From: a virus | Lineage: Duplodnaviria; Heunggongvirae; Uroviricota; Caudoviricetes | Length of the DNA stretch: 10,066 bases | IMG/VR virus record: IMGVR_UViG_2663763227_000008 | Span: 1 to 10,066 of that record | Direction: 5' to 3' (one strand) | In this document: positions 4,333-9,334 of the stretch, one piece after another | Layout of the letters: every line of letters begins with the position of its first letter | How positions within the stretch are numbered: the stretch's first letter is position 1 | The notes under the pieces: model-generated | Told to the model about the DNA's origin: nothing | The model's input: the letters and a program-made list of their open reading frames with translations, nothing else | Databases searched by the model: none | Position numbers and translations under genes: made by a program

Positions 4333-4433
4333 TGGCGACCGCGAAGGAATGCGGGTATGCCTTAATTTGTCCCGAGTCGAAGTATTAAATCAGCGTTATT
4401 TCCTTGGGCCATGTCCATTCTGAGAACAAACAT

Positions 4434-5039
4434 ATGAGCAAAGAATTTTACGCAAGACTGGCAGCTATTCAGGAGAATCTGAACGCGCCAAAAAATCAGT
4501 ACAACTCATTCGGTAAATATAAATACAGAAGCTGCGAAGACATTCTTGAAGGCGTTAAGCCGTTACTGAATGGCCTGTTTTTATCAATCAGCGATGAAGT
4601 TGTGTTGATTGGTGATCGGTATTACGTGAAAGCCACGGCAACTATTACCGATGGCGAAAACAGTCATACGGCAACCGCTCTTGCACGAGAGGAAGAAAGC
4701 AAGAAAGGAATGGATTCTGCACAAGTTACGGGAGCTACAAGCTCTTATGCACGCAAGTATTGCCTCAATGGTTTGTTCGGCATTGATGATGCGAAAGATG
4801 CAGATACAGACGAGCATAAACATCAGCAGAACGCAGCAGCAAAGCAATCAAAACCATCACCTACACCTGAACAGGTTCTAAAAGCATTCACTGACGCAGC
4901 AATGCAGAAAAACACCGTGGAAGAGCTTAAACAGGCGTTCGCCAAAGCGTGGAAGATGCTCGAAGGCACACCGGAGCAGCACAAAGCGCAGGACGTTTAC
5001 AACATCAGACGAGACGAATTAGAAGGAGCGGCTGCTTAA
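4434..5039 (+). CDS. erf: Erf-family single-strand annealing recombinase (P22 Erf-like)
   Basis: Translation MSKEFYARLAAIQENLNAPKNQYNSFGKYKYRSCEDILEGVKPLLNGLFLSISDEVVLIGDRYYVKATATITDGENSH... closely resembles P22 Erf as I recall it; ATG 4434 preferred over the upstream TTG at 4404. Confidence 0.8.
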   Translation: MSKEFYARLAAIQENLNAPKNQYNSFGKYKYRSCEDILEGVKPLLNGLFLSISDEVVLIGDRYYVKATATITDGENSHTATALAREEESKKGMDSAQVTGATSSYARKYCLNGLFGIDDAKDADTDEHKHQQNAAAKQSKPSPTPEQVLKAFTDAAMQKNTVEELKQAFAKAWKMLEGTPEQHKAQDVYNIRRDELEGAAA

Positions 5040-5445: not shown

Positions 5446-5742
5446 ATGCCAGCGCCTCTGTATGGTGCGGACGACGCGCGCCGCTGTTCCGGCAATTCCG
5501 TATCGGAGGTGCTGGATAAATTCAGAAAAAACTACGATCGGATAATGTCGCTACCACAGGAAACGAAAGAGGAAAAGGAATTTCGCCACTGTATATGGCT
5601 TGCAGAGAAAGAAGAACGCGAGCGAATTTACCAGACATCAATCCGACCATTCCGCAAAGCCACATATACCCACTTCCCTGAATATATCGACCCGCGCCTG
5701 CGTAATTACCGCTCACGCTATGGCGCTATCAGTAATGACTGA
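5446..5742 (+). CDS. Hypothetical protein (98 aa)
   Basis: ORF with SD aagga upstream; no recognisable motif. Confidence 0.5.
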   Translation: MPAPLYGADDARRCSGNSVSEVLDKFRKNYDRIMSLPQETKEEKEFRHCIWLAEKEERERIYQTSIRPFRKATYTHFPEYIDPRLRNYRSRYGAISND

Positions 5743-6043: not shown

Positions 6044-6204
6044 GAGGACTTGCATACAATCCCGGCATTCTTCCGGCAGAAATGATTATTCGCCAACGCG
6101 TAAAGCCAATGCCATCGAGAGAGGAATTGCTTAAGAGAAATTCTTTTCCATCAGTGAATCAAAACAAATATCTGAATGCGATGTGGCGGAGTGGGAAGAA
6201 ATGA
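6040..6204 (+). CDS. Hypothetical small protein (54 aa), not in the supplied ORF track (below length cutoff)
   Basis: ATG overlaps the upstream stop (ATGA) and its own stop overlaps the next ATG (ATGA), filling what would otherwise be a gap in a coupled gene string; translation [54 protein letters not shown]. Confidence 0.35.
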
Positions 6205-6671
6205 AACAAATGTCACTAATTGAGATGGATGGTTTTCTGAAAGGTAAATGCATCCCACGAGATTTAAAGGTTAACGAAACAAATGCTGAATATCTGGTGC
6301 GTAAATTTGCTGAAGCTGAGGCCAAGTGCGCGGCACTGGCGGTGGAGAATGCGGGAATAAAGTCTGCAATTCCTCAACTACGGGATATTGATGCTGACAA
6401 TGACAATATGGATGACGTATCTCTTGCTGAAGACTTCGGATTCAATCATGCAATAGAACGGATGAGGAGACAGATACCTGAAACCCCAGCCACCGATGCT
6501 TTTCTGGCTGAAGTACGGGCGCAGGGCGTGGAGATGTACGCAGATAACCTCGACAACGCAGCAGACGACGCAGAACGAGGTGGTTTTGATTATGCCGTTA
6601 AGTTTCTACGCAGTGAAGCGTCTAGTGTACGTTTGTTCGCCGGCCAGCTTCGCAAAGGAGGCAAACAGTGA
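6201..6671 (+). CDS. Hypothetical acidic protein (156 aa from ATG 6201; alternative GTG start at 6183)
   Basis: Long ORF in the coupled string; acidic, Ala/Asp-rich; no recognisable motif. Confidence 0.5.
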
Positions 6672-7486
6672 GCGAAATTGACTATCAGGCACTGCGTGCT
6701 AAGGCAGAGAAAGCAACGTGTGGTGCGTGGTCGCTCGAATATGGAGAGGGCCGATTTGATGGTGATGATGCGCTAATTCATCGCAAGGCTGCTGGATATA
6801 TTCCCATTTGCAGAATTGAAGGAGCGCATCCAGAAAGCGGTTTCGATGAAGATTTCCAAATGGAACAGCAGGCCAATGCTGAATTCATCGCCGCAGCCAA
6901 TCCGGCTACTGTGCTGGCGCTTCTGGATGAACGGGAAAGAAACCAGCAATACATCAAACGCCGTGACCAGGAGAACGAGGATATTGCTCTTACGGTTGGG
7001 AAGCTGAGAGTTGAGCTTGAGGAAGTAAAACAACACGCTGAAGAATTATCCGAAACCAAGGCTGTTCGTAACCAATGGCGGCCAGATATTTGCCCAATAA
7101 CCGGACGTGCATTTTTCATGTGGATTGAGCATCCAACATTGGGGAATGTGCCGACATATGGTGGCCCATTAGATAGTTACACCATTCCAACAAAGGACGG
7201 TGACGGTGAGTTTTCATGTGAGCGTTACGATCATGATTTTGGCGGTTGGGTAGAAAGCGAATGTCTTGGGTTATATCTGATTGATGATAGAGAACAATGC
7301 AGGGTCTACGAACTGGAGGAACGCGTTAAGGAACTGGATGCTCGGGAAATATCGCTCCCGGAACGTAGCAGCATGCTTCATCGAACAGATTTTCACGATG
7401 ATTACCAAACGGTAATGGCATACAAAGTTTCTGAAGTCATCGATGCAATCCGCGCTACTGGCATTCGCATCAAAGGAGGTGAGTAG
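6668..7486 (+). CDS. Ea22/Ead-like family protein (272 aa)
   Basis: GTG start with SD aaggagg and GTGA overlap with the upstream stop. N-terminus [16 protein letters not shown] and segment LLDERERNQQYIKRRDQENEDIALTVGKLRVELEE resemble Ea22-like prophage proteins from memory; central coiled-coil-like region. Confidence 0.5.
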   Translation: MSEIDYQALRAKAEKATCGAWSLEYGEGRFDGDDALIHRKAAGYIPICRIEGAHPESGFDEDFQMEQQANAEFIAAANPATVLALLDERERNQQYIKRRDQENEDIALTVGKLRVELEEVKQHAEELSETKAVRNQWRPDICPITGRAFFMWIEHPTLGNVPTYGGPLDSYTIPTKDGDGEFSCERYDHDFGGWVESECLGLYLIDDREQCRVYELEERVKELDAREISLPERSSMLHRTDFHDDYQTVMAYKVSEVIDAIRATGIRIKGGE

Positions 7487-7662
7487 TGCGTGTGGCATGT
7501 ATCGGCTTGTTACCGTACCCGACTCGTTTTTGGGCTTCTGCGCTAATTGCAAAGCCACATGTCCTGATGACTGACAACATCATCCCGGCACCAAAGCGCC
7601 GCCATACCGGTATTGCAGCGGCACGACGAGCAGCAAAGAGACGCAGGAGAGCAAAACGATGA
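7486..7662 (+). CDS. Hypothetical small basic protein (58 aa, GTG start), not in ORF track
   Basis: GTG overlaps the upstream TAG; Arg/Lys-rich C-terminus AARRAAKRRRRAKR; its stop overlaps the next ATG (ATGA). Supported only by coupling geometry. Confidence 0.25.
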   Translation: MRVACIGLLPYPTRFWASALIAKPHVLMTDNIIPAPKRRHTGIAAARRAAKRRRRAKR

Positions 7663-7835
7663 AAAACCGTAAAGCAAAATTACTTCTTTTATCGCGTTCG
7701 ACGGGGTACGAGAAGCTACCAATCAGCAATCACAAACGGGCGGTGATCGGCATGTTTGGTAGGGTGGTATTCGCATTTAACTATAAACCCACCGCGTCGC
7801 GTAACAGACGAGAGAAGGGGTACGCAGTGCGATGA
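7659..7835 (+). CDS. Hypothetical small protein (58 aa), N-terminus MKNRKAKLL, not in ORF track
   Basis: ATG overlaps the upstream stop; its first ~20 nt are duplicated at the start of the next ORF (7832). Confidence 0.25.
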   Translation: MKNRKAKLLLLSRSTGYEKLPISNHKRAVIGMFGRVVFAFNYKPTASRNRREKGYAVR

Positions 7836-8023
7836 AAAACCGTAAAGCTAAGATGCTTATCTCCCGTGTATACAGACTTTGCTATCCCAGCCAGTGGTTG
7901 AGAGTTAGCAATCGCTGTGTGGTGTTGTTTTCATTTTCTGGAATTGCCAGAGAGGGAATCAAAGATAAGCGCAGCGCGGCGCAAAACCGCTGGAAAAACC
8001 ACTTGCGCACTAAAGGAGCCTGA
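7832..8023 (+). CDS. Hypothetical small protein (63 aa), N-terminus MKNRKAKML
   Basis: ATG overlaps the upstream stop (ATGA); shares its 5' 19 nt exactly with the start of the previous small ORF. Confidence 0.3.
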   Translation: MKNRKAKMLISRVYRLCYPSQWLRVSNRCVVLFSFSGIAREGIKDKRSAAQNRWKNHLRTKGA

Positions 8024-8024
8024 T

Positions 8025-8234
8025 ATGGCTATTGCCGCAAGTTACACCATGCATCTCTATTGTGATTGCCTCCAGTGTACAGATGGCAAATATAAGTCGC
8101 CAGACTTCGGTGAGTATATAGGTACGTCATGGGCTGGCTGTGCAAAAGAGGCGCGCAAGGATGGCTGGCGAATAAGCAAAGACAAAACGCGTGCTTTTGC
8201 GCCCGGGCATAAAGTTTTGAGGATTAACAAATGA
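8025..8234 (+). CDS. Hypothetical Cys-rich small protein (69 aa; C-x-C-x2-C ... C, possible zinc-binding)
   Basis: SD aaggag 6 nt upstream of ATG 8025; translation MAIAASYTMHLYCDCLQCTDGKYKSPDFGEYIGTSWAGCAKEARKDGW...; the GTG-initiated extension from 7917 is rejected. Confidence 0.45.
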   Translation: MAIAASYTMHLYCDCLQCTDGKYKSPDFGEYIGTSWAGCAKEARKDGWRISKDKTRAFAPGHKVLRINK

Positions 8235-9025
8235 CCACTATAACCAAAGAGCGACTGCTGACAATCAAGCAGTGGCGCGAAACATACGGACCTGGTAGCA
8301 ACGTTGTACTGCCAGCAGAAGAAGCGGAAGAACTGGCACGAATTGCACTGGCATCGCTGGAACGCGAACAGATTCGCCACGAGCATGCCAAATGGTCTGA
8401 CTCCACATTTGGCTGCGTTGGCCCCATTGGTCCACTGAAACACCTCTCAAAAGAGGCTATGGAAACCGCAGCCGAACCAGACGATCTCAGCGAGTGGGCT
8501 GATATGCATTTCCTGTTGTGGGATGCACAGCGCCGTGCTGGCATCAGCGATGCTGAAATTACCGCTGCTATGGAAGATAAATTGAAGATCAACATGGAGC
8601 GCCAGTGGCCTGAACCAAAAGATGGTGAGCCTCGCTTGCACATTAAAGAACCCGGCAACTCTCCGGTAATTCCGGATGATTTATCCACGGTATGCGCTGA
8701 GGCTTATCAGGTTGTAGGAGTTATGGCAGATGCGCTTGGTGTATTCGGTGATGCAGCAGTACAGAAAGTTCTGGATAACCTGTCACAGCAAAAACTTGTT
8801 CACAGAGATGTGCTGCCGTTCTCGCTTCCGGTGACTCCGGATGGTTGGATAAGCTGTAGTGAGCGAATGCCCCCTCAAGATGATTGGATTTTAATTTATT
8901 CAAAGCACGGCGAGTATATGGCAGGACAGGTACAAGGGGAATACGTGGAGTTGAGCGACGGCACTTTATCGTGGTTAGGGAACGCCTTGTTCTGGATGCC
9001 GCTACCAGAACCGCCTCAGGGGTGA
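8231..9025 (+). CDS. DUF550-like (putative dNTP pyrophosphohydrolase-like) N-terminal domain fused to DUF551-like C-terminal domain (264 aa)
   Basis: ATGA overlap with the upstream stop. N-terminal region (MTTITKERLLTIKQWRETYGPGSNVVLPAEEAEELARIA ... WSDSTFG) and C-terminal region (GWISCSERMPP ... WMPLPEPP) resemble these prophage families from memory. Confidence 0.5.
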   Translation: MTTITKERLLTIKQWRETYGPGSNVVLPAEEAEELARIALASLEREQIRHEHAKWSDSTFGCVGPIGPLKHLSKEAMETAAEPDDLSEWADMHFLLWDAQRRAGISDAEITAAMEDKLKINMERQWPEPKDGEPRLHIKEPGNSPVIPDDLSTVCAEAYQVVGVMADALGVFGDAAVQKVLDNLSQQKLVHRDVLPFSLPVTPDGWISCSERMPPQDDWILIYSKHGEYMAGQVQGEYVELSDGTLSWLGNALFWMPLPEPPQG

Positions 9026-9091
9026 AATGATGCTTGGCCTGAAGTATTTTATGTAATTGGTATTGCTATATTTTTATCTGGGGATAAACGA

Positions 9092-9334
9092 ATGTTCTCT
9101 CTGATTCAACGTGGTCAGATATACACCGATAGCGCTGGCTATCCAGTAAAAATCATTCGTAGTACTGATCACTCAGTGTTCTTCAAGAGGATGGATGGCT
9201 ATCCTGGAAGAGTGTGCATCCGAAAATTCAATAATTTATTCGAACACATTGATCACAGAGAATATCACCAGATCCTGGCTGAAACAGAGCAGGAGAACCA
9301 TCTGAAAAAATTACGTGCCATGCAAAGGAGATAA
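9092..9334 (+). CDS. Hypothetical protein (80 aa), possibly DUF4222-like
   Basis: Pattern RGQIYTDSAGYPVKII...SVFFKRMDGYPGRVCIRKFNNLFEHI resembles the G-x-Y-x-D ... V-x-F-x-R-x-G-Y ... C pattern I associate with small prophage DUF4222 proteins; weak SD. Confidence 0.4.
   Translation: MFSLIQRGQIYTDSAGYPVKIIRSTDHSVFFKRMDGYPGRVCIRKFNNLFEHIDHREYHQILAETEQENHLKKLRAMQRR

Follow-up and report, generated by a model that had tools for sequence, protein, structure and literature searches.

The exact 19-nt repeat found between the Ea22-like gene and the Cys-rich ORF of this prophage is the 5' block of two adjacent genes, ORF2 and ORF3, together with the ATGA stop/start overlap at which each begins; it reflects ordinary phage mosaicism at a gene-boundary joint and is no new element. 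ORF1, ORF2 and ORF3 are real, serially overlapping genes of the distal early-left (pL, exo-xis) operon in an E. coli prophage of the P22/lambda type, and ORF2 and ORF3 are two long-diverged alleles that were set side by side by recombination between phages, with no recent local duplication. Taken whole, the best explanation, which is probably correct, combines real genes, old PHROG 1380 alleles juxtaposed by phage recombination, and a repeat that is at once their shared gene start and the joint.

The genes form a tight chain in the window, the whole stretch of 10,066 nt that was analysed, with all features given here on the plus strand. The first gene upstream of the chain is the Ea22-like gene (6668-7486; Pfam Ead_Ea22, 1.3e-30), whose end (…IKGGE, then stop) contains an AGGAGG Shine-Dalgarno sequence at 7474-7479 that serves ORF1; in alignments with relatives the conserved junction starts near 7458, inside this gene. 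ORF1 (7486-7662; 58 aa, pI 12.0) begins with a GTG that overlaps the TAG of the Ea22-like gene by 1 nt, and is followed by ORF2 (7659-7835; 58 aa, pI 11.6) and ORF3 (7832-8023; 63 aa, pI 11.5), each joined to its predecessor by an ATGA overlap. ORF3 abuts the next gene in the chain, the Cys-rich ORF (8025-8234; 69 aa; PHROG 926, 1.5e-36), through TGA-T-ATG, and that gene is connected to the following one by a further ATGA overlap at 8231. The coordinates, lengths, chaining and flanking genes are all as the original prediction had described them, and the stop/start overlap or abutment is conserved in relatives. At the downstream junction, AAAGGAG-N-TGA-T-ATG (8012-8027), the tail codons of ORF3 double as the Shine-Dalgarno sequence of the next gene, and in other phages the same junction leads into five or more different genes. 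The Shine-Dalgarno sequence of ORF3 itself is weak (GAAGGGG, about 11 nt upstream), and the ATGA overlaps would couple the translation of the chained ORFs.

ORF2 (5.8e-23, residues 1-58 on profile positions 1-60 of 62) and ORF3 (1.3e-32, residues 1-62 on positions 1-61 of 62) are, by these profile matches, full-length members of PHROG 1380, a catalogued, uncharacterised phage family of 58-65 aa. The family has three conserved blocks, an N-terminal MKNRKAK, a central SN(R/H) and a C-terminal SAAQNRWK, and between them lie highly divergent cores. In an alignment of 30 sequences N3, R4 and R53 are invariant, and M1, K5, A6, L9, S26, N27, A49, Q51 and N52 are conserved at 90% or more. ORF2, of core type D, carries the central block as S23-N24-H25 (7725-7733), the S and N being invariant or nearly so family-wide, and its C-terminal block runs into an 'internal' tail (TASRNRR-EKGYAVR, then stop; 7791-7835) that ends in the ATGA overlap with ORF3; this …KGYAVR tail always stands ahead of another family member. 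ORF3, of core type F, has S26-N27-R28 (7907-7915) at a predicted turn between strands 1 and 2, SAAQNRWKNH (7973-8002) at the start of a predicted C-terminal helix, and a tail of the terminal type (…LRTKGA, then stop). ORF1 belongs elsewhere: it matches PHROG 13831 (2.9e-41, residues 1-58 on positions 1-58 of 58), and the idea that it is a degenerate PHROG 1380 member was ruled out by BLASTP and hhalign, which found the two unrelated. It starts with GTG in the window and with ATG in the relatives inspected, and it precedes the PHROG 1380 genes at most loci, type C loci being without it.

The family is narrow in sequence space and common in its niche. Among 1.84 billion proteins it has 45 representatives at 50% identity, and it is present in 144 phage records, mostly of Stx phages, the others being from lambdoid phages such as HK225, phiV10 and P1-like ones; a scan of GTDB species representatives added one true locus (Citrobacter braakii) and one archaeal match that is probably spurious. 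Of 5426 complete E. coli genomes, 1510 match an 851-nt region including ORF1-ORF3 at least partly. The exact ORF2 protein is encoded on 95 public contigs, as 'hypothetical protein', and the exact ORF3 protein on 56; entries for the exact window proteins, under that same label, exist for many E. coli genomes.

The repeat, CGATGAAAAACCGTAAAGC, occurs exactly twice in the window, at 7657 and 7830, with a spacing of 173 nt. Copy 1 (7657-7685; exact 19-mer 7657-7675) comprises, over its extended block, the two bases that close the preceding sense codon, the ATGA overlap and ORF2 codons 1-9, and copy 2 (7830-7858; exact 19-mer 7830-7848) is its counterpart in ORF3; the extended block of 29 nt is 86% identical. 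Both copies encode MKNRKAK, and the expectation that such a duplication is unlikely to arise by chance held up, since two matches to the 19-mer were found in 0 of 200 dinucleotide-preserving shuffles, even with three mismatches allowed. Identity of 17-19 nt is short for homologous recombination.

Of the origins that had been suggested for the repeat, a recombination scar at a module junction is the one that comparison with other phages bears out. Similarity changes abruptly at a fixed short conserved sequence, as is evident both from alignments and from the pile-up of HSP boundaries: ends cluster at 7670-7699, 7850-7859 and 8020-8029, starts cluster at 7630-7650, 7780-7789, 7830 and 7960-7979, and BLAST similarity to other phages returns at 7780-7789, in the C-terminal block of ORF2, and at 7960-7979, in that of ORF3. 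In the alignment of the window with phiV10 only the ORF2 core is swapped. The relative L009 differs from the window by one clean indel of 173 nt with a repeat copy at either boundary: the unit at 7657-7829, consisting of 5' block, type-D core and tail, is absent from L009, where ORF1 is followed directly by a single type-F gene. A gain and a loss would explain this indel equally well.

The PHROG 1380 arrays comprise 76 with a single gene, 42 with two and 2 with three, and they combine core types in many ways, the same core being found with either tail (P0062, for example, has a type-D core with the terminal tail). Such products suggest that recombination at gene ends would swap cores and would grow or shrink the array, the short conserved gene ends serving phage recombinases as homology; genes for an ERF recombinase and Abc2 lie in the window. 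On homology that is short and diverged, mosaics form through the action of Erf and other Rad52-like recombinases (PMC3945230).

Two other sources of variation were considered and rejected. Shuffling at the central block does not agree with the V1 and V2 segments travelling together in related subfamilies (A/E/G, H/I), and exchange would therefore be at gene ends only. A diversity-generating retroelement target was likewise discarded: the scanned ORFs of the window gave no reverse-transcriptase match, the only one above 300 aa being ParA-like, no repeat other than the 29-nt 5' block is present here, and the cores cannot be aligned with one another and are not A-mutated.

A joint that is also a gene start could be conserved for its peptide or for its nucleotides, and codon usage shows the constraint on the 5' block to fall mainly on the peptide. 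In Citrobacter, in Mu-like phages and in nin-region contexts, family members retain xNRKA(K/R) while using other codons (AAT AAT CGC; AAC AAC AGA). An alternative, which we consider unlikely, is that the 19-mer is a nucleotide-level initiation or coupling element selected as RNA, the ATGA overlap being followed by an A-rich, unstructured start. Several observations fit such an element. The ATGA overlap (-4) is present in 42 of 42 two-gene arrays, and the Shine-Dalgarno sequence of ORF3 is weak. In the E. coli lambdoid/Stx pool the 5' block is near-identical even at synonymous sites, which the central block, conserved to an equal degree, is not: pairwise codon identities between divergent types, in which shared ancestry is uncorrected, are 1.0, 0.81, 0.87, 0.70 and 0.80 for K2, N3, R4, K5 and A6, as against 0.56, 0.31 and 0.17 for the central S, N and R. 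Selection on the initiation region, rather than recombination, could account for part of this raised synonymous identity. The two ORF2/ORF3 junctions, moreover, fold no better than their shuffles (z-scores +0.48 and +0.36), as would be expected of open initiation sites.

The same folding result, together with the absence of an Rfam match in the window, rules out a structured RNA or sRNA at the junctions and also speaks against an element selected as RNA, as do the different codons of the distant members and the sequence of the repeat itself. Mismatches of 1-2 nt separate the two copies of the 19-mer in 34 of the 41 unique tandem pairs; the closest complete-genome relative lacks an exact repeat, reading AAG where the window has AAA; and the conserved Arg codon is CGT rather than an A-rich one. 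Promoters and terminators in 6600-9100 did not exceed chance. The suggestion of a conserved initiation or regulatory element is therefore mostly unsupported at the nucleotide level, although the ATGA overlap itself is conserved, and a peptide-encoding gene start remains the preferred account of the repeat.

From a net charge of about +13 (pI 11.5-12) and from the position of their basic conserved motifs, on one strand turn and both predicted helices, the proteins may be small nucleic-acid-binding factors made early after induction. An AlphaFold2 model of ORF3, of moderate confidence (pLDDT 76.9, pTM 0.47), has a helix-three strands-helix arrangement; a run on a shallow alignment gave pLDDT 60 and was set aside. 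The model shares the order of its predicted elements, and its size of about 60 aa, with dsRBD-like small proteins, HicA toxins included. A dsRBD-like or HicA-like fold was not adopted: a fold search with the model gave no significant match, and neither structural similarity nor a Pfam dsrm or HicA_toxin match was obtained. Searches of Pfam, NCBIfam, PADLOC and PDB sequences returned nothing on the function of ORF1-ORF3, and the first two and PADLOC contained no defence or toxin-antitoxin family for these ORFs or the Cys-rich ORF. No experimental report of translation or function was found in the literature for any PHROG 1380 member, and searches on the peptide, the exo-xis small ORFs and Stx-phage ribosome profiling yielded nothing about these genes.

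The chain might instead owe its form to its function, as a toxin-antitoxin pair or a set of genes for anti-defence or host takeover, in which an arms race drives the divergence of the cores and tandem copies supply several specificities. Its position in an accessory early region, where lambdoid phages have host-modulating genes (PMC8614690), the highly divergent cores between invariant basic blocks, the free mixing of types in arrays and the place of ORF1 ahead of the family at most loci all lend themselves to such a scheme. It is nevertheless rather improbable, given that PADLOC, Pfam and NCBIfam are without a match, that selection within types is purifying, that there is no fixed pairing among types or with ORF1, which type C loci do without, and that nothing links the family to any host target. 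A more novel reading, in which PHROG 1380 proteins would be small cassette-swapping nucleic-acid-binding effectors, is a speculation of similarly low probability: the three invariant basic blocks would hold a common ligand (such as RNA, DNA or the ribosome), the divergent, freely exchangeable three-strand core would set specificity for a target that varies, in the host or in a rival phage, tandem arrays with one to three different cores would widen the range of targets, and the gene ends would be kept partly for shuffling by recombinases.

Tandem duplication, another origin originally proposed for the repeat, stands as paralogy, both genes being full-length PHROG 1380 members, and falls as a recent event in situ. 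That the 19-mer is merely the part of a recently duplicated small gene that has not yet diverged is suggested by the adjacency of two same-family genes with identical starts 173 nt apart, and is nonetheless very improbable. ORF2 and ORF3 share 19 of 21 nt in codons 1-7 but only 46% of aligned nucleotides (68/147) after codon 7, BLASTP aligns only 10 residues between them, and the codons of the conserved central block have diverged. Each core type also has near-identical counterparts in other phages, same-type unique sequences differing by a few percent per site, and there it has other partners: type D is paired with F, H or G, and type F follows B, E, A or D. The two genes are accordingly long-separated alleles brought together, not a fresh copy beside its parent.

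Underlying all of this is the status of the ORFs as genes, and instead of tolerating frameshifts and stops, the relatives conserve the frames. Nucleotide comparisons show ORF1-ORF3 to be under purifying selection, each in its own frame: pN/pS in frame is 0.43 for ORF1, 0.35 for type D and 0.42 for type F, with 0.64-1.25 in the other frames (1.25 and 0.83 for ORF1), and over seven core types plus ORF1 the in-frame values of 0.07-0.43 are always below those of the other two frames. Of 57 unique full-length relatives of ORF1, 55 are intact, the indels among them, of 21 and 6 nt, all keeping the frame, and 124 of 130 unique PHROG 1380 genes are full length, most of the others being cut by contig ends. 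The notion that the frames arose by chance, or as a side effect of a conserved DNA or RNA element, draws on the ORFs being short, known from sequence alone, and often overlooked by annotators or given a wrong start (L207 lacks an annotation of ORF2, 933W one of ORF1), and is hardly tenable when pN/pS lies below 1 only in the annotated frames, indels in ORF1 relatives keep the frame, more than eight highly divergent cores each stay open for about 60 codons, amino-acid motifs persist across changed codons and Rfam is without a match. In the E. coli genome that is closest among the complete ones ORF1 has lost 1 nt, and a few PHROG 1380 genes are truncated, so that the genes are dispensable in at least some prophages.

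A striking exact repeat thus turns out to be the normal by-product of two adjacent paralogous accessory genes at a phage mosaic joint. The discovery value is small. The analysis nevertheless documents a widespread small-protein family that is unannotated or mis-annotated in Stx and other E. coli prophages, and knowledge of the correct starts, the layout in three blocks and the variation in copy number should help in annotating the exo-xis region, which is poorly understood and has been implicated in the induction of Stx prophages. The 173-nt indel illustrates, as a clean natural example, how genes can be gained, lost and swapped by way of very short conserved ends, and the three very basic early proteins are cheap candidates for functional tests.

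Set against what is catalogued, the window genes match PHROG 1380 and PHROG 13831 end to end and do not differ in kind, and the likeness of p50 and p51 was already remarked on in the phiV10 GenBank record. What is added is the pairing of core types D and F in the window and a description of the three-block layout, the alternative tails and the copy-number variation of the arrays, for which no earlier account was found in the literature. The small exo-xis genes that lambda and Stx phages carry (orf60a, orf63, orf61, orf73, ea22, ea8.5) occupy the same place, in the distal pL operon between the recombination genes and xis, and resemble ORF1-ORF3 in having small, early transcribed, non-essential products; by Pfam or PHROG there is no sequence relation. 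ORF1-ORF3 fall in the 'variable set of downstream genes' after ea22, uncharacterised in the exo-xis literature, and comment has been made on duplicated genes in that part of Stx phages (PMC8614690). The closest parallel for the joint is with lambdoid mosaic joints (PMC3945230), which likewise have abrupt changes at gene ends, short junctions between unrelated flanks, and Erf present. The window joint differs from these in being also the conserved N-terminal peptide of a tandem gene family, so that expansion and contraction by the 173-nt unit become possible besides the swapping of alleles.

The 19-nt repeat is the conserved start common to two divergent paralogues, ORF2 and ORF3, and doubles as a mosaic joint; overlapping stop and start codons chain these genes to an unrelated small gene, ORF1. 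Re-reading of the ORFs confirmed the lengths and overlaps first given for ORF1 (7486-7662), ORF2 (7659-7835) and ORF3 (7832-8023), all on the + strand. Exact copies of the 19-mer CGATGAAAAACCGTAAAGC begin at 7657 and 7830, the repeat reaches 29 nt at 86%, and no shuffle of the window contained two matches, even at three mismatches, so the pair is indeed not expected by chance. Profile searches placed ORF2 and ORF3 end to end in PHROG 1380 (5.8e-23 and 1.3e-32), ORF1 in PHROG 13831 (2.9e-41) and the Cys-rich ORF that follows (8025-8234, + strand) in PHROG 926, all of them catalogued but uncharacterised families; sequence searches of Pfam, NCBIfam, PADLOC and the PDB returned no match for any of the four. 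Because BLASTP aligns ORF2 with ORF3 over the first ten residues only, and identity at aligned nucleotides past codon 7 is 46%, the two are old paralogues rather than a fresh duplicate. ORF1 was considered as a further relative and rejected, being unrelated on comparison. The exact proteins of all four ORFs are already public as E. coli 'hypothetical protein', and the resemblance of p50 to p51 was remarked in the phiV10 GenBank record. ORF1 starts with GTG over TAG in the window (7486), and with ATG over TAA, as TAATG, in the relatives inspected.

The frames are conserved and under purifying selection in related phages, an outcome in favour of real genes. Within each core type (the divergent versions between conserved blocks) pN/pS in the proposed frame is 0.07-0.42, the other two frames always being higher; for ORF1 the values are 0.43 in frame and 1.25 and 0.83 out of frame. 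Of 57 unique full-length relatives, 55 have an intact ORF1 and two merely end it one codon earlier; length variants of ORF1 arise from differences of 21 and 6 nt. Family genes are full length in 124/130 unique cases, most of the others being cut by contig ends; there are also a few genes truncated early and one whose start is disrupted. That constraint acts on the protein is supported most strongly by the distant members, in which the three peptide motifs are kept across changed codons. No translation or function data on these genes were found in the published literature. In the closest complete genome (E. coli UID2309220007, a 97% relative; L207 1227-1412), a 1-nt deletion, possibly genuine and possibly a sequencing error, changes the ORF1 frame so that it yields 61 aa and extends across the ORF2 start, and PGAP annotates the shifted ORF1 and ORF3 and omits ORF2. 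Start-codon annotation of the family in public records is inconsistent: genes are often extended N-terminally into the upstream gene, to 82-103 aa, as in phiV10 p51 (L001 1807-2079), 933W L0068 (L003 1806-2093) and family entries P0002-P0033, and an intact 51-aa form of ORF1 is missing from the 933W annotation.

The family was assembled from about 120 IMG/VR loci with the start sequence and 80 more recovered with degenerate peptide patterns. Among genes starting with MKNRKAK, at least eight core types can be told apart, and these have only three blocks in common, MKNRKAK, (L/I/V)SN(R/H) and (S/T)A(A/S)QNR(W/R)K, the segments between them looking unrelated. Arrays contain one family gene in 76 cases, two in 42 and three in 2; every adjacent pair overlaps by ATGA, and combinations are free (B+A, B+F, E+F, D+F, D+H, D+G, A+F, B+A+F), the window pairing type D (ORF2) with type F (ORF3). 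A tail ending ...KGYAVR* is always followed by another family gene. The tail ...LRTKGE* closes the array, its codons (AAAGGAG-N-TGA-T-ATG) forming the Shine-Dalgarno of the next gene, for which there are at least five alternatives. Types A and E occur with either tail, and one gene (P0062) joins a type-D core to the terminal tail. The upstream Ea22-like gene ends ...IKGGE* (7458-7488) and the family terminal tail ...TKG(E/A)* (8009-8027), each encoding an AAAGGAG(G) Shine-Dalgarno for the following gene, and the last ~9 codons are common to different upstream genes. Gene ends in this region look like standardised connectors.

Several results support the view that the 5' block, comprising the ATGA overlap and the first codons, is a recombination joint, and they favour the scar at a module junction proposed for the repeat. 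When ~200 related loci are aligned to the window by BLAST, segments stop at 7670-7699, 7850-7859 and 8020-8029 and start at 7630-7650, 7780-7789, 7830 and 7960-7979, positions that coincide with the conserved-block edges. The window and phiV10 are ~93-95% identical over ORF1, the 5' block, the ORF2 tail and ORF3, whereas their ORF2 cores are unrelated. Another locus (L009) matches the window at ~95% identity across ORF1 and the type-F gene and is short by precisely one 173-nt unit, the gap being bordered by the two repeat copies. The prophage carries an Erf recombinase gene; phage recombinases of the Rad52-like kind, Erf included, have been shown to generate mosaics where homology is short and diverged (PMC3945230). 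Overall, peptide constraint would hold the block similar, and exchange among co-resident lambdoid phages, with the block as crossover point, would then keep it near-identical; the ATGA overlap and the AAA second codon may bring in some selection on initiation as well.

Several results argue against the 19-mer being a nucleotide-level element, such as the conserved initiation or regulatory element also envisaged. Between divergent types from the E. coli pool, the codons for K2/N3/R4/K5/A6 have identities of 1.0/0.81/0.87/0.70/0.80, compared with 0.56/0.31/0.17 for the central S/N/R, residues that are just as invariant; the 5' end thus carries additional nucleotide conservation. However, Citrobacter, Mu-like phage and nin-region members encode xNRKA with other codons (AAT AAT CGC, AAC AAC AGA, AGC AAT CGT AAG GCG etc.), 34 of the 41 unique tandem pairs show one or two 19-mer differences between their copies, AAG occurs in the ORF2 copy of the nearest complete-genome relative, and neither an Rfam match nor a folding signal was obtained. 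A recent local duplication of one small gene is excluded, since the ORF2 and ORF3 cores are too divergent and close relatives of each are paired elsewhere with different partners; of the suggested tandem duplication, only the paralogy of the two (both PHROG 1380) survives.

PHROG 1380 is a narrow family: 1.84 billion proteins yielded 45 representatives at 50% identity. Of 50,697 phage records, 144 carry it, mainly Stx phages but also lambdoid phages, HK225, phiV10 and P1-like phages among them; an 851-nt query holding the ORFs matched, at least partially, 1510 of 5426 complete E. coli genomes. The family has no fixed tie to the exo-xis position: distant members (L213/L214 3001-3189; L211 3001-3204; L209 3001-3219) sit in other early or accessory gene strings: one in a Mu-like phage, flanked by DUF2786 and GemA/Mor, one downstream of replication genes O/P in a nin-like region, and one adjoining a lysozyme and terminase region. 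A weak tblastn match to the C-terminal block in a Thermoplasmata archaeon MAG (L126 3001-3075; 50% over 28 residues, E 3e-6 relative to the candidate set only) is probably spurious.

ORF1, ORF2 and ORF3 are extremely basic (pI 11.5-12.0, net charge ~+13 over 58-63 residues). AlphaFold2, with a 30-sequence alignment, gave a moderate model of ORF3 (pLDDT 76.9, pTM 0.47) with predicted helices at 4-13 and 49-60 and strands at 20-26, 29-34 and 39-44; of the three conserved blocks, one lies on the opening helix, one on the first turn between strands and one where the final helix begins. To judge by composition and location in the pL operon, these proteins would most likely bind nucleic acid, or a machine rich in it, soon after induction. 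The exo-xis region, home of these genes, affects lysogeny and induction; of the genes downstream of ea22 the literature says only that they form a variable, uncharacterised set (PMC8614690). In 933W an insertion splits ea22, leaving the C-terminal domain as L0065 (PMC8614690); the block of ORF1, family genes and Cys-rich ORF falls inside the inserted stretch.

ORF calls and domain searches identify the window as the immunity and early-left region of a lambdoid E. coli prophage, reading left to right on the + strand. After cro (minus strand) and cI (Peptidase_S24 and HTH) come a 347-aa ParA/MinD-like P-loop ATPase (1568-2611, +; Pfam AAA_31 2.8e-13, CbiA 1.4e-09), N, a DUF7446 gene, an ERF-family recombinase (4404-5039, +), an unassigned 127-aa ORF, Abc2 (5446-5742, +; Pfam 4.1e-61) and two Ea22-like genes (6183-6671 and 6668-7486, both +) that overlap start to stop. 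ORF1, ORF2, ORF3 and the Cys-rich ORF are followed by a dATP/dGTP pyrophosphohydrolase-DUF551 fusion, more small genes and an excisionase-like ORF. In lambda, rexAB occupy the cI-N interval, the place taken here by the ParA-like ATPase, which could be a candidate prophage-borne exclusion or defence gene; its sole PADLOC match is marginal (PDC-M28B, E 0.0011). The recombination module, pairing an ERF recombinase with the anti-RecBCD protein Abc2, is of the P22 type and not lambda Red.
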